Positions 39,629 through 45,674 of a stretch of DNA of 64,000 nucleotides are shown piece by piece (the stretch's first letter is position 1; every line of letters begins with the position of its first letter). This stretch comes from an uncultured delta proteobacterium (lineage in GTDB: Bacteria > Desulfobacterota > Binatia > Binatales > Binataceae): positions 1,216,001 to 1,280,000 of the forward strand of contig CAWCDG010000004.1 of assembly GCA_963794325.1 (NCBI GenBank). Direction: 5' to 3'. A model generated the notes under the pieces. The model saw nothing but the letters and a program-made list of their open reading frames with translations. It had not been told where the DNA came from and did no database searches. The position numbers and the translations under genes were made by a program.

Positions 39629-40627
39629 ATGATTAAACGAATACTCACTGGGGACCGTCCAACCTCGCCGTTGCATCTCGGCCATTACGTAGGATCCCTG
39701 CAAAACAGGGTACGCTTGCAGGAAGAATACGATACCTACGTACTAATAGCCGACGTTCAGGCGCTGACCGACAACTTCGAGCATCCCGAGAAACTCGAAG
39801 CGAATATCTTCGAGGTCGCGCTCGACTACCTGGCGGTCGGTATCGATCCGGAAAAAACGAAGTTCGTCGTGCAGTCGATGGTCCCGGAGCTGACCGAGTT
39901 GACGATTTATTTTATGAACCTCGTCACGACCGCGACGCTCGAGCGCAATCCTACGCTGAAGGACGAAATCAAGCAGAAGAACTTCAGCAAAAATTTACCG
40001 GTTGGATTTTACACATATCCGATTTCGCAGGCCTCGGACATCACGATTTTCAAGGCTCACCTGGTGCCGGTGGGCGAAGATCAACTGCCGATGATCGAGC
40101 AGGCGCGCGAGATCGTGCGGCGCTTCAATCGTCTGTACGACAAAGTGCTTATCGAGCCGAAGGCGCTGCTTGGCGAAATGGCGCGGCTGCCGGGCACCGA
40201 CGGCGGCGCGAAGATGGGTAAGTCGCTCGGCAATTGCATTTACCTTGGCGATCCGCCCGAGGTGGTGCGCAAGCGCGTGATGTCGATGTACACCGATCCG
40301 ACGCGATTGCATCCGACGGACCCGGGCCATGTCGAAGGCAATCCGGTTTTCACGTACCACGACGTGTTCAATCCGGATAAGGCTGAAGTCGAAGATCTGA
40401 AAGAGCGCTATCGCAAGGGCACGGTCGGCGACGTCGAGGTCAAAGAGAAGCTGTTCAAGGCTCTTAACGCTTTTCTGGAACCGATTCGCGAGCGCCGCGG
40501 GGAATTCGCATCGAAGCCGGAGCGGGTGCGAGAGGTCATCGTCGAGGGCACGCGCAAGGGACGCGCGGTGGCGCAGGAGACGATGGCGGAAGTCCGCGCG
40601 GCGATGAAGATCAGTTACAAGTTTTGA
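39629..40627 (+). CDS. trpS: Tryptophanyl-tRNA synthetase
   Basis: TGDRPT..LHLGH, YP.SQA.DI, VPVGEDQ, KMGKS. Confidence 0.97.
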
Positions 40628-40776
40628 GGGAAGAGGAAATCACTTTATTTAATGTGAAACCCGCGGTGGGTTTCACGCTTCCTTCGGCAGGGCTAAGCCC
40701 TGCACTTTAGTACCAATCGCAAAATGGTGCGGACGCCATTTTGCTCCGTGTGTCATTTAGAGCGAAGCGAAGAATC

Positions 40777-40853
40777 CGGCAGTTTATACTTTATGTAACT
40801 TCGGGATCGCTCTTGTAGGTTCGAGGTTAGGTTGCGTAAAGTATATACTCGCG
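40777..40853 (+). repeat. Left MITE-like unit (own ~25-bp TIRs)
   Basis: CGGCAGTTTATACTTTATGTAACTT...AGGTTGCGTAAAGTATATACTCGCG. Confidence 0.8.
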
Positions 40854-40911
40854 AACGAAATCATTAAGGCTCCTGCCTGCTTGGTGGCACCGCGCCCTAG
40901 CGGAACGGACA

Positions 40912-41571
40912 TTACAGCGTTGCGTACTGACGTGGTTCGCTCGATCTTCGGGACTGATAGCGCCAGATCCATGCATCGAAGTCGCGGCGATTCAGCCCCA
41001 GTAAATCTGCCGCCCAAGACACTGCTGCTTGAATGTAATCATACTCGAGGATCCCCACCCCGGCATCTCGCGTAAACGTCCTTATATGTCTATCTACCGC
41101 AATACGATCAATGCCCACTAAGCAGCACATATAGTCGTAGGTCTTCGGCCCGACGCCTGATAGGCTCAGAAGCTGGTCCTTGGACCGCCTGTGCTTAAGC
41201 CACTGGCGAAGGTCGTTGGTGTCTTCCACGGAGTTTGCGCCGAGGAGAGAGGCGAGTCGCGTGAACCGTGAGACCTTTGTCGGGTGCTTCCATAGTAAAA
41301 AATCAGACACTAATCCCCTCTCGATTATCGAATTCACCCCCGAAAGCCTCGCCGCTTGTGGGTAATTTGTCTGTATGCGGGCGATCCGCGGTCTAATCAC
41401 CGTGCGATAATTTAGGCCCGCCTGTAGAACAGCGTCGGCCAACACGGCACCTAAGTGGCTTGCAGTTGGTCGCGGCGGAGTCGGTTTCACAACAATGCCT
41501 AAGCGCTCAGCGTGAGCAGCGACCTTACGGGCGGATGCGAGTACTTCCAGAGGGGCAGCTGACGGTGTCAT
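40912..41571 (-). CDS. HhH-GPD DNA glycosylase/lyase-like protein
   Basis: LLSLSGVGPKT HhH motif with Lys, AVDRH catalytic Asp. Confidence 0.75.
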   Translation of the reverse strand: MTPSAAPLEVLASARKVAAHAERLGIVVKPTPPRPTASHLGAVLADAVLQAGLNYRTVIRPRIARIQTNYPQAARLSGVNSIIERGLVSDFLLWKHPTKVSRFTRLASLLGANSVEDTNDLRQWLKHRRSKDQLLSLSGVGPKTYDYMCCLVGIDRIAVDRHIRTFTRDAGVGILEYDYIQAAVSWAADLLGLNRRDFDAWIWRYQSRRSSEPRQYATL

Positions 41572-42197
41572 ACAGACCGTCTGGTCATGTCAATCGCCAT
41601 GAGGCGTTCTACGCAGTTGGGACAGGCCCCGCAAGGCGTATCGCTCAGCAGTTGACATGAATAGGTTGATCCAATTGGGACCCGTAGGCGTTCGGCCTCC
41701 CTCACCACCTGCGCTTTTGACCAATTGCGGAACGGAATCTGGAACTTGACTGGTCCGACATCGGCAGCCAAGCTGTCGAGCTGGTTCAGAAATGTCGCCG
41801 AACAATCAATCTCTTTCGCGTGGTTACTATTTATGAAGCCACTGTAGACCTCGGTCAGGCCCCGCGTTTGGGCGCAGGAGGCGCCAGCCGAAAAGAACAG
41901 TAGGGTCCGGTATGGAACGTAAAGGTCCTCGTCCTCAACACGCTCACTCCAAAGGTCCGGCTCCCGAATAAGCCTTGAGCGAGAGCCTCTAAATATGCCG
42001 GAAATGTCAATCCTAGTGGGTGATGACAAGCCGCGATCTTTGGGAAGCACCTTCCGAACAGTGGCCCATTCCTTCTCAACGCAGTGTTGACCATAGTCGA
42101 AGAATACGGGTACGACCCCGATCTCACGCTCGCGAAGCCAATAGGCGACTGTGGTCGAATCCAGCCCGCCGGAGCATAGAAGTAGTACCTCAGGCAT
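41568..42197 (-). CDS. QueC-like PP-loop ATPase (7-cyano-7-deazaguanine synthase family)
   Basis: SGGLDS, DYGQ, YVP.R, SC....PCGACPNC Zn site. Confidence 0.9.
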   Translation of the reverse strand: MPEVLLLCSGGLDSTTVAYWLREREIGVVPVFFDYGQHCVEKEWATVRKVLPKDRGLSSPTRIDISGIFRGSRSRLIREPDLWSERVEDEDLYVPYRTLLFFSAGASCAQTRGLTEVYSGFINSNHAKEIDCSATFLNQLDSLAADVGPVKFQIPFRNWSKAQVVREAERLRVPIGSTYSCQLLSDTPCGACPNCVERLMAIDMTRRSV

Positions 42198-43525
42198 TAG
42201 TTCCCTCTCCTTTCGCCAAGCAGATAGAAAACGGCATTGAGGCAGGAGTCCAGGTCGCGAGAATAATGGGCGGAACCCGCCATGACCATGGTGTTAGCAT
42301 TCTCGCCCATAGGGTCGAAAACCACCACCGGGATTCTGGACTGGATGGCCAGGCCGATCTCAACCAGCGTTCCCGGATCACGCGCGCTCGGAACAGCAAA
42401 GACGAGCTGACAATGTATTAGAAGATCGATGTCTGCCTGGTAGGTTCCCTGCAGCGTAGCAGCGTCAGAGCTAGGTGGCAGCTCGCCGTTCTCTACTATT
42501 GGCCGACGGACGCGGAAATTGTGGTATTGCAGTGAAGCCAATACCCGGTCGATGGCCGCTCGCTCGGCTCCAGCGAAATCTGGCGCAGCGAGGTAGATTG
42601 ACAGCTCCTGCCGTCGCTCCCAAGGCAGGGACGCTCCCCAAAGACCTCTCATCTCCTCGAGAGAAAGCTTAAGGTCCCGTTGCACATACGTCTTGAAGAG
42701 ATCGGGGTAGGTTGTCTGCGAATAAGCGGAGCTCGCGTAAGTCGCTCGCCAGCCGGCCTCAGCAATTCCTTTGCCGAGATGGACTACATAGGCCGCTGCA
42801 AATACGTCACCAACGCCTACCGAGTTCTCGGTTGTTCCGAGCTGCGCCGGCAGTGCCTCAACTTCGCCGCTTGAGACAGATACTAACCTGGAGCCGCCTC
42901 GATTTTCTTTCAGAATCACGGTTGAGGGATTGCTGCTCGAAAACGCCCTTACTACACCCATGATCCCGCCCCCTTGGATCGATCTAAATAGTTCGGAAGA
43001 CGTGGAGATAAGAACAGTCTCCACCAATTGCGGCAGGCCAGCGATTTCGACCGGATCCCTGATGTCGTATGCCGCGTCCACATGAACGCGAGCGTTTTGA
43101 GGTAAGAGCGTACTGGCCTCTTTCAAGCTGTAAGTGCCGGGAAATAGCAGGATTTCACTGCCAGCTGTGCTCTCTACCCGCGTTCTCGAAAGTCGGACGG
43201 TCTTCTCGTCCCGCAGCAAGGTTTCGTACCCTTGGTCTGCTACCTCCGTGGGATCAAAGATTACCGTTAGATTGGGGGCTCCCTTGACGATGCCGAGGAT
43301 GTGGAAATCGACGCATCCGAGCGCCTTAAAGTATTTGTTCGCTGAGTCGACCAAGTACTCTGGCAGGATCAGGGCGGCCCTGAAGGGGGCACCAAGAGCC
43401 CAGAACCCACGGGCCGCGTGTGCAACCCCGCCCAATCTTAGCTTGTTTTCCGTCCCGGACGCCGTAACAGTGAAGTCTACAAAGAGTTCGCCGACCAGGA
43501 GCGGGGCGCTTTCCGAGGCGGTCAT
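42197..43525 (-). CDS. PfkB/ribokinase-like domain fused to nucleoside 2-deoxyribosyltransferase domain
   Basis: LKENRGGS, VGVGDVF (PfkB); IYLAAPDF..D.....C..DPGT.VEIG.A..N.M (NDT). Confidence 0.85.
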   Translation of the reverse strand: MTASESAPLLVGELFVDFTVTASGTENKLRLGGVAHAARGFWALGAPFRAALILPEYLVDSANKYFKALGCVDFHILGIVKGAPNLTVIFDPTEVADQGYETLLRDEKTVRLSRTRVESTAGSEILLFPGTYSLKEASTLLPQNARVHVDAAYDIRDPVEIAGLPQLVETVLISTSSELFRSIQGGGIMGVVRAFSSSNPSTVILKENRGGSRLVSVSSGEVEALPAQLGTTENSVGVGDVFAAAYVVHLGKGIAEAGWRATYASSAYSQTTYPDLFKTYVQRDLKLSLEEMRGLWGASLPWERRQELSIYLAAPDFAGAERAAIDRVLASLQYHNFRVRRPIVENGELPPSSDAATLQGTYQADIDLLIHCQLVFAVPSARDPGTLVEIGLAIQSRIPVVVFDPMGENANTMVMAGSAHYSRDLDSCLNAVFYLLGERRGN

Positions 43526-43914
43526 GGGCGATCTGGCACAAAATCAGCCCTCACGGACGCAAGTGGCGGGCCTGCCGTCCTAGCCGTCACACGACCTGGG
43601 TAAGTCCACCCATCTTGTAAGCAGGAAGCTAGATAGTTAAATGCCGTAGGGATGTTTCCTACGCTCTCACCGTTGACGGTCTCAGCTACCAGACGCTTCC
43701 TCAGCCGGATCCGGAGTTGCTCTCCGACTGGAGGCGGTGCACCGTGCGCCGCGTAGTAGTCAGAGTGTTCAATGTCCTCGAGGGACGTGCTCAAAGCCCG
43801 CCCACAACGATCCGATGGCGGGCTGCCGCCGCCCCCCTTGGGTCCGCCACCGCTCTTGTCCGTTTTAGAAGAGCCCGGATAGTCACTGATTCTGCCAGGA
43901 CCGCTGCTACCCAT
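43522..43914 (-). CDS. Small hypothetical protein with MGSSG N-terminus, first gene of the QueC operon
   Basis: GGGGG RBS-like run, ATGA overlap with the next gene, Gly-rich N-terminus then a beta-rich domain. Confidence 0.75.
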   Translation of the reverse strand: MGSSGPGRISDYPGSSKTDKSGGGPKGGGGSPPSDRCGRALSTSLEDIEHSDYYAAHGAPPPVGEQLRIRLRKRLVAETVNGESVGNIPTAFNYLASCLQDGWTYPGRVTARTAGPPLASVRADFVPDRP

Positions 43915-44048
43915 TGAAGTTCCCCCTCTCTAGCTATCCGTTTGCTAACGCTTCCCACCGGTCGCAGAACTCCGAAGGAGCGTAAGGTAAAGACAATATC
44001 AACCCCCGAGCTACACTAGTCCGTTCGGCGCGTCTCGAACAATCAAAT

Positions 44049-44126
44049 CGGGAGCATATACCTTGAGCAACCTAACCTCGAACCAATAAGTCCCGATCCC
44101 GAAGTTGCGTAAAGCATATACTCCCC
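44049..44126 (-). repeat. Right MITE-like unit (inverted copy of 40777-40853)
   Basis: Reverse complement GGGGAGTATATGCTTTACGCAACTTCGGGATCG..GGTTCGAGGTTAGGTTGC..TATATGCTCCCG. Confidence 0.8.
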
Positions 44127-44200
44127 GAAGAATCCCGGATCCTTCTTTGCGTCTCCGGCCGACGCGCGTCTGCGCGCGGCGGGTGAGAGATCAAATTTCG

Positions 44201-45674
44201 CTAGTAGGACTTCGCGAAGATACGCGCGCTCGGTGGCGGGTTCGCCGCAGGCCAGGCATTTGCCGGCGACGCCGTCGTTGGTGAGCGGGATCGCGCGGCA
44301 AGTCGCCTTGGTTTCTTCGCGAATTTTCGTCTCGCACGCTGGATTTCCGCACCAGTAGATGTCGGCGAATCCGCCGCCGCCCTCGCCTTCCATATGCTTA
44401 CGAAAGACCGCGTAGTCGTCGAACTTTCGTGTGTTCGCGACCATCGCGACCTTCGCCTGCGCGTAGAGATTTTTTTGAATCTCGGCGAGCAGCGCGACGA
44501 CGGTCTCCGCGATCGTTGCGAGCGACGCCTTGGTTTTCGATTCCGGTCCCGACTTGTCGCGCCGCGCGAGCACCGCTTCACCTGACGCGACATCGCGCGG
44601 TCCGATCTCGATTCGCACCGGGACGCCGCGCATCTCCCAGTCGTTGAACTTGAAGCCCGGCGTCATGCCCTCGCGCTCGTCGATGCGCGCGCGTATGTTC
44701 GCCTTCATCAGAGCTTCCAACGCGGCACGCGCCGCCGCCAGCACGGTCGCGCCTTCCTCGGGTTTGCGGAAGATCGGCACGATGACCGCCTGCGTTGAGG
44801 CGACGGTCGGCGGTAGGCGCAGTCCCTGGTCGTCGCCGTGCGCCATTACGATTGCGCCGAGCAGGCGGGTCGATACGCCCCAACTCGTCTGCCACACGAA
44901 TTGCATCTGATTCTGATCGTCGAGGTAGCGGATCTCGAACGGCTTCGCGAAATTCTGGCCGAGAAAATGCGAAGTGCCGCATTGCAGCGCGCGCCCGTCG
45001 CCCATCAGCCCTTCAATTGAGTACGTCTCGACGGCACCAGGGAATCGTTCGGCAGCGCTTTTGCGTCCGACGATCAGCGGAATCGCGAGAAAGTCCTCGA
45101 CGAATTGACGGTACACTTCGAGCATCCCGAGCGTTTCGCTTTGCGCTTCCTCGGCCGTCGCGTGCGCGGTATGGCCTTCCTGCCAGAGGAACTCGGTGGT
45201 GCGCAGGAACATGCGGGTGCGCATTTCCCATCGGACGACGTTGCACCATTGATTGACCATCATCGGTAAGTCGCGATGCGATCGAATCCATTGCGCGAAC
45301 ATGTGATTGATGATCGTCTCGGAGGTCGGGCGCACGATTAGCGGCTCTTCGAGCTCCTTGCCGCCGCCGTGGGTGACGACCGCCAGTTCGGGCGCGAAGC
45401 CCTCGACGTGTTGCGCTTCCTTTTCCAGGAAGCTTTGCGGGATGAACAGCGGGAAGTAGGCGTTGCGCGCGCCGGTCTTCTTGATGCGGCGGTCGAGCTC
45501 GTCGCGCAGCGCCTCCCAAATCGCAAAACCGTCGGGGCGAAACACGATGCATCCGCGCACCGGCGAGTAGTCTGCCAGCTCCGCGCGCAGGCAGATGTCG
45601 TTGTACCACGCGGCGAAATCCTCGCTGCGCGGCGTTACCTTCTTTTCGTTCTGCTTATTTGGTTTGTCAGCCAT
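44201..45674 (-). CDS. proS: Prolyl-tRNA synthetase (archaeal/eukaryote type), 1-nt frameshift near 44221
   Basis: HVEGFAPE, RPTSE, FLRTTEFLWQEGH, QTSWG.STR; the normal FAKSY* end lies in another frame ending at 44201. Confidence 0.95.

Follow-up and report, generated by a model that had tools for sequence, protein, structure and literature searches.

The question raised by this locus is how an operon that encodes no transposase came to lie, flanked by two perfectly matching octamers, between the convergent trpS and proS genes of an uncultured delta proteobacterium of the family Binataceae. The locus lies in a stretch of 64,000 nucleotides (assembly GCA_963794325.1, contig CAWCDG010000004.1, positions 1,216,001 to 1,280,000), here called the window, in which the element under study occupies positions 40777-44126, 3,350 bp in all, and is bounded by two inverted units of 77 and 78 bp. 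This segment is a real insertion. It is very probably a non-autonomous insertion of the IS1595 type, and the explanation that we favor, with a probability of roughly 70%, is that a group of IS1595-type insertion sequences (ISs) of the same genus gave rise to it as a non-autonomous transposon, in which two inverted mini-elements flank an operon, and that it moved in trans.

The insertion and its target site

The first-pass annotation of this DNA had described two inverted units of about 78 bp, each with terminal inverted repeats of its own, a duplication flanking the whole and no transposase inside, and all of this was confirmed. When 40777-40853 and 44049-44126, which lie in inverted orientation, were aligned globally, 62 of 78 columns were identical and the core blocks AACTTCGGGATC and GGTTCGAGGTTAGGTTGC were common to both. 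Each unit is laid out as an end, a 31-nt core and an inverted end, the two 23-nt ends within a unit being inverted copies of each other (18/23 and 17/23), and each is predicted to fold into a hairpin (-9.7 kcal/mol, z -2.76 for the left unit). The four end copies (40777-40799, 40831-40853, 44049-44071 and 44104-44126) exceed chance: when the 4.45-Mb genome was scanned with the end consensus at up to 4 mismatches there were 5 matches, 4 of which are these ends, and at up to 5 mismatches there were 14 matches against 10 for a reversed-pattern control. The octamer GAAGAATC stands directly outside both outer ends, at 40769-40776 and 44127-44134, and matches at 8 of 8 positions; the direct repeat stretches to 10 nt, CGAAGAATCC, and the extra bases are terminal bases of the element that coincide with the adjoining bases of the target. 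The inner flanks of the units, AACGAAAT and AATCAAAT, are both A/T-rich as are other targets of the element group, and their comparison showed that neither unit has a target duplication of its own. No transposase match was found among the open reading frames (ORFs) inside 40777-44126 and none of them carries PF12762 or PF12760, and for that reason the element is not an IS but only a non-autonomous IS1595 derivative. Between the units lie four overlapping, tightly packed ORFs on the minus strand, separated from the units by spacers of 58 and 134 nt. The features of the locus are as follows, with those inside the element first.

[quoted passage not shown]
40912..41571, minus strand: cargo gene 4, 219-aa HhH-GPD DNA-glycosylase-like protein (weak PF00633; structure model; PDB matches)
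41568..42197, minus strand: cargo gene 3, 209-aa QueC paralogue (PF06508 1.6e-30; PADLOC QueC 1.5e-27; below the TIGR00364 cut-off)
42197..43525, minus strand: cargo gene 2, 442-aa protein in which a PfkB-like kinase is fused to a nucleoside 2-deoxyribosyltransferase-like domain (PF05014 7.8e-13, weak PF00294)
43522..43914, minus strand: cargo gene 1, 130-aa protein without a known family, which is conserved together with the cassette
44049..44126, minus strand: MITE-like unit of 78 bp on the right, in the opposite orientation to the left one; inner end 44049-44071 with 4 mismatches, outer end 44104-44126 with 1
40769..40776: the 8-bp target duplication GAAGAATC, left copy; the octamer occurs singly at 22 uninterrupted sites that are paralogues
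44127..44134: the same duplicated octamer on the right side, identical to the left copy at 8/8
40625..40776: left part of the target, a modular intergenic repeat found throughout the genus
44127..44200: right part of the same repeat, with copies in genus genomes
39629..40627, plus strand: trpS, tryptophanyl-tRNA synthetase, left neighbor outside the element (PF00579 2.1e-62)
44201..45674, minus strand: proS, prolyl-tRNA synthetase, right neighbor outside the element (PF00587, PF09180, PF03129; usual stop by homology at 44201-44203)

The flanks 40625-40776 and 44127-44200 belong to a modular repeat of which every genus genome has many copies. In the genome of the window there are about 80 short-BLAST matches per flank (an example copy is G000:C2:117094-117180, G000 being this genome), the modules form hairpins, their combination varies from copy to copy, and no Rfam family was matched at E up to 0.1 in 40400-44400. 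The same genome was found to have 22 copies of the repeat that are uninterrupted, with GAAGAATC present only once at the position of the element. In these copies the left flank runs into the start of the right flank with an overlap of 8 nt in 20 cases and of 7 nt in 2, which means that the empty site holds one octamer, and the same overlap was seen at paralogous empty sites in the genomes G011, G007 and G003. It is the many paralogous empty sites, and not a sister strain, that prove the insertion, and the case is unusually clean. No match to the cargo was found in any of the 46 other genus genomes, and in 21 of 24 genus genomes the distance between trpS and proS is 789 bp or less, the exceptions being G010, where they are 2.5 kb apart, and G015 and G019, where they lie on separate contigs. 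The genus tallies for the trpS-proS distance, the cargo and the end consensus include the unpublished genomes G019 and G024, whose loci were not individually inspected. The wide gap in G010 was considered as another site of the element and was rejected, as there are no element ends in it; that interval (L067, G010:C47:266600-269500) holds three tandem paralogous genes of 262-279 aa in place of the short spacer. The trpS-proS interval is a variable spot across the genus. A further observation concerns proS, which has one extra base near 44221 compared with 11 relatives, whose proteins end in ...TERAYFAKSY*. Here the frame shifts after ...TERAY, and the ORF 44043-45674 continues for 58 residues, crosses the target duplication as well as the right unit and ends at 44043. 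The extra base is absent from contigs of related strains in the public metagenome runs X2 and X3 and the assembly has only one proS; this base is either a real mutation or an assembly error.

A group of IS1595-type elements in the genus

On sequence grounds, the window element is a derivative of an IS1595-family group that is common in the genus. The 21-nt end consensus, with up to 3 mismatches, was found in 31 of the 46 other genus genomes, against 1 match in all 47 for the reversed-pattern control. Short stretches elsewhere that matched the outer end and flank of the window element proved to be the termini of related elements that had entered the same octamer. We found 14 complete relatives with the same ends, from 45 bp to 5,707 bp long, and of their 8-bp duplications 10 are perfect, 3 match at 7/8 and 1 at 5/8. 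Eight of the 14 encode an IS1595-family transposase that is 55-100% identical to that of the element in G005, which is 2,455 bp long, has matching ends and a GAAGAATC duplication, and encodes a 395-aa protein with PF12762 (8.7e-37) and PF12760 (1.4e-10); in the other seven the transposase is 55-82% identical to it. The first-pass annotation had made its IS1595 call tentatively and had looked to an autonomous IS with the same terminal repeats as a check, and these transposase-bearing elements bear it out on both counts. The outer ends of the window element differ from the consensus of the eight by 1 and 4 mismatches in 21 nt. An 8-bp target duplication is the rule in the IS1595 family, and the ends presumably resemble those of the ISNwi1 subgroup.

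One of the remaining complete elements, L028 (777 bp), keeps a transposase relic of 36 aa and in the other five no transposase match was found. The transposase-less derivatives of the group are 45, 218, 587 and 834 bp long, together with a 2.2-kb element of G042 that carries an ORF with an NYN domain. The 45-bp derivative (L043, G022:C6:407972-408014) consists of two abutting inverted ends, and the other minimal derivative is the 218-bp L042 (G012:C1:264253-264468). L045 (G014:C6, 587 bp) and L048 (G008:C101, 5.7 kb) have homologous flanks and the same target octamer AATTGCTC, which reflects either decay in place of one from the other type or a shared hot spot. Among the transposase-bearing relatives, three have as a passenger a DNA methylase (PF01555) in fusion with a nuclease domain of the Mrr type, an HNH endonuclease is encoded by one, and there are otherwise unassigned ORFs (L047 527-2263, L048 3716-5338, L050 3421-5022, L048 1083-1610 and L053 448-966 are the positions of passenger ORFs in these relatives and in the G042 element). 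Nine elements of the group also have an ORF of about 60 aa of no known family, 45-75% identical among them (L029 1863-2054, with homologues in L028 and L046-L052), which sits beside or downstream of the transposase and is absent from the window element.

The octamer GAAGAATC was used in 8 of 24 other insertion events examined, a share that is biased because 6 of the 8 were found through similarity to this locus, and in only 2 of the 18 events that were found by the end pattern alone. Its use is therefore a preference and not a strict specificity. Related elements have inserted independently into this octamer in other genomes (L028, L029, L049 and L056). Outside the family of the window the end pattern was about as rare as the reversed control in a sample of 401 genomes of the phylum, apart from G424 and G448, each of which has three 1-mismatch end matches, in pairs 343 and 227 bp apart. 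What the genus holds is an environmental IS1595 group that routinely carries passengers, has derivatives from 45 bp to 5.7 kb and has repeatedly landed in one motif of an intergenic repeat.

Origin and movement of the element

According to the explanation that we favor, the transposase of the group, supplied by another copy in the cell, would have bound the two outermost ends, and the whole 3,350 bp would have moved into GAAGAATC inside a copy of the repeat between trpS and proS, an insertion that would have duplicated the octamer. The two units would once have been mini-elements in their own right, which at another place came to lie on either side of the operon and so formed a composite transposon. 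What the locus shares with composite transposons and pairs of MITEs is that two copies of one element flank the cargo, that a duplication flanks the whole and that there are paralogous empty sites. The absence of duplications around the units together with the perfect duplication around the whole is the signature of one transposition that used the outermost pair of ends. The units differ from each other by 21%, whereas all 16 bases of the duplication are intact, and this suggests that the units may already have differed when the composite arrived. Each unit has the structure of a MITE, as it is 77 or 78 bp long, non-coding, bounded by inverted repeats and folds as a hairpin. That two MITEs moved the operon in trans was the proposal of the first-pass annotation, and of the three checks that it suggested two turned out in favor of it, the autonomous element with matching ends and the empty sites, the latter as paralogues; "MITE" is here a structural description and not a demonstrated multi-copy family.

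Several findings weigh against the reading of two mini-elements moved in trans. The term MITE rests on structure because no solo 78-bp copies were found. Such copies, which the first-pass annotation had expected a genome-wide search to reveal, were absent from the genome itself and from the 46 other genus genomes, and when one genome per species was scanned with an exact 18-mer of the unit core, a scan that would miss diverged copies, there were only 2 matches, in cyanobacterial and Bryobacterales metagenome-assembled genomes, which were rejected as chance because no end sequences lie nearby. Only two copies are thus known, both at this locus and neither with its own duplication; they share only 79% identity, and at the left outer end 4 positions depart from the consensus. 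An empty site with a single octamer had been looked for in the trpS-proS interval of relatives; it exists as the 22 paralogous copies, but an exact orthologous empty site was not found in the 11 relatives inspected, because the trpS-proS spacer differs in all 11, and the target module is there in none of them. The genome of the window has only a decayed relic of the cognate transposase (G000:C2:510498-510931, 72% identity over the last 79 aa, with an internal stop), near which there are no recognisable ends, and no intact one was found in this assembly, which is 85% complete, so that an intact copy is possible. The one intact IS1595-family transposase of the same genome (L035) was rejected as the mobiliser, being 32% identical and having no matching ends, and an end-like pair in G000:C5 (4 and 5 mismatches, 4.8 kb apart) was set aside as chance, as it lies in ordinary sequence and has no target motif. 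With only a relic in the genome, any movement would have been in trans and in the past, and since one outer end is also degenerate the element is probably immobile today in this genome. Movement of the element, its transposition in trans and its origin from formerly independent units are what we infer from the sequences.

The origin of the element specifically from two mini-elements has, in our estimate, a little better than an even chance, and the alternative with which it has to be compared is a single mobile insertion cassette with long, structured 78-bp terminal inverted repeats, which we regard as possible though somewhat unlikely. The inner end copies would then belong to each long end, for example as an extra transposase-binding site or as the relic of a nested insertion that was duplicated to both ends. 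Such a cassette would agree with the lack of any solo 78-bp unit in the scans, with the resemblance of the outer halves of the units (the end and the CGGGATC motif) to the subterminal regions of the full-length elements L047, L050 and L057, and with a cargo that is exactly one compact operon set closely between the units (58 and 134 nt). However, an inner inverted end copy, at up to 4 mismatches, was seen in 0 of 14 complete relatives and in 0 of 10 further ends, and the anatomy of the units exactly matches that of the other mini-elements of the group (45 and 218 bp). Both readings predict the same transposition of the whole element and are inseparable on present data.

It is very improbable that the locus is a classical composite transposon in which both full-length flanking ISs lost their transposases in place after arrival. 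Deletion derivatives do exist in the group, such as L028 with its transposase relic, and L045 and L048 lie in homologous flanks at the same target, but neither unit of the window element retains a transposase remnant, and both units share the core blocks and hence the same internal junction, which two independent deletions would not produce. A 78-bp mini-element therefore predates the composite in the reading that we favor, in place of two ISs decaying where they stand. Even less probable is that no transposition took place, and that the cassette was placed here by recombination between repeat copies or by a mis-join in the assembly, the resemblance of the ends being incidental. In its favor it can be said that the flanks are multi-copy repeats, that public short-read contigs break at repeats and that the junctions rest on one assembly: no read or contig in the public runs bridged either junction or skipped the element, which also counts against transposition as we describe it. 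These contigs are short and are silent on polymorphism. In six runs of soil metagenomes, which come from three studies, no more than 0.23 of the sampled words were present, and exact pieces of flank and cargo were found in runs X1-X3, which may include the source sample (four runs were examined as short contigs). Against the absence of transposition stand the 8-bp duplication exactly at the ends of the element, the match of these ends to a transposase-bearing family with the same duplication length, the independent hits on the same octamer by L028, L029, L049 and L056, and the exact cargo and flank pieces in run X1.

Elements of related design have been described. Class 1 integrons bounded by two 439-bp MITEs are known in Acinetobacter (PMC3934969; review PMC10969869). 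Two small transposase-less copies with inverted repeats flank a cargo there as well, a duplication flanks the whole and mobilisation in trans is inferred; the units there are 439 bp and not 78 bp and the duplication is 5 bp and not 8 bp, whereas here the units are inverted and only 79% alike, the ends are of the IS1595 type and the unit has no further known copies. The cargo there is a resistance integron, and here it is a cassette with a QueC paralogue in a genome from a soil metagenome. In mobile insertion cassettes such as MIC231 of Bacillus cereus, IS ends enclose passenger genes and no transposase, and IS1595-family elements with passenger genes are established too (PMC3129680). In such cassettes, as here, IS ends bracket passengers without a transposase and a related IS can mobilise them, but MIC231 has a single inverted repeat at each end where the window element has a complete mini-element. 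MIC231 presumably belongs to the IS4/IS231 family, a family other than that of the IS1595-type element here. "Transporter" ISs of the IS1595 family, with passenger genes, were reportedly described by Siguier, Gagnevin and Chandler in 2009. The ends and the 8-bp duplication of the window element are those of its transposase-bearing relatives, which carry passengers, but unlike these it has neither a transposase nor the ORF of about 60 aa. ISs that target repetitive extragenic elements are also known, for example IS1111 in QMITE2 of Coxiella (PMC10969869). There too, one motif of a multi-copy intergenic repeat was entered repeatedly and independently, and the difference is that the octamer is preferred here and not strictly specific. 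As MITE-pair composites, mobile insertion cassettes, passenger-carrying IS1595 elements and repeat-targeting ISs are already described, the element adds one example and leaves the known categories of mobile elements unchanged; it is a clean, fully bounded example of a complete foreign operon that rides on IS ends alone. A composite of two IS1595-type MITEs was not found in a shallow search of the literature, which does not show that there is none in print.

The cargo cassette

On the minus strand the cargo genes encode, in order, the 130-aa protein, the 442-aa fusion, the 209-aa QueC paralogue and the 219-aa HhH glycosylase-like protein. The first-pass annotation had called this a QueC operon, and there is a QueC-like gene in the operon, but the 209-aa protein scored 93.5 bits against a TIGR00364 cut-off of 150.3 bits and is therefore a QueC paralogue and not canonical QueC. 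PADLOC gave only its generic QueC model as a match and assigned no known defence system. According to a 2026 survey of QueC proteins (PMC13329287), about 89% of the neighborhoods of an uncharacterised QueC "Cluster 4" contain a PfkB-PF05014 fusion, and the motifs of this cluster are an SGGxDS loop, YGQ(x)6E and CH(x)5CxxCxGCxK. The 209-aa protein has CSGGLDST, which fits the SGGxDS loop, and a PfkB-PF05014 fusion gene lies directly upstream of its gene; it also has YGQHCVEKE and CQ(x)6CxxCxxC, which are similar to the two other motifs but differ in spacing and residues. Thus the P-loop and the fusion neighbor are shared with what that source describes for Cluster 4, and the cargo matches a gene neighborhood described only recently.

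The 219-aa protein was modelled with AlphaFold2 from 41 sequences, with a predicted local distance difference test score (pLDDT) of 88.9. All top PDB matches of the model are HhH-GPD glycosylases (MagIII/Ogg/EndoIII/MutY) with template modelling (TM) scores of 0.61-0.65; the best E is 2.7e-3 and none reaches 0.001. A GxGPKT...D motif is invariant in the 41 homologues, and it presumably corresponds to endonuclease III's catalytic Lys and Asp; in the 219-aa protein Lys143 and Asp160 are conserved. The 130-aa protein had no match in Pfam, NCBIfam, PADLOC or PHROG. A scan of the locus with promoter and terminator consensus patterns gave 0 promoter-like and 2 terminator-like sites, at or below the expectation from shuffled sequence, and was uninformative. 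Our guess is that the cargo has a role in nucleoside or DNA-base chemistry. It is unlikely, though conceivable, that the IS1595 group is a dedicated shuttle for nucleic-acid-targeting genes that uses the genus-wide repeat as a safe landing pad, in which case the cassette would be a DNA-modification or anti-phage system in transit on a transposase-less vehicle. The mobility of the cargo, together with the restriction-type passengers of the sister elements, makes DNA modification and phage defence functions worth testing for.

The four-gene cassette is widespread, horizontally acquired and foreign to the lineage. The 442-aa fusion had 1060 homologues among 7999 scored candidates, the best other than itself at 81% identity and a Mesorhizobium protein at 78%, whereas within the phylum it was found in only 2 of 400 other genomes, at 34-37% identity, and from this distribution it follows that the cassette was acquired horizontally. 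All four genes were found in the same order, 53-78% identical and without these ends, in the metagenome loci L058 and L059, and in 5 metagenome loci the fusion gene has a homologue of the 130-aa protein, 45-69% identical, immediately upstream. Three further metagenome loci have pairs of cassette genes at the ends of contigs.

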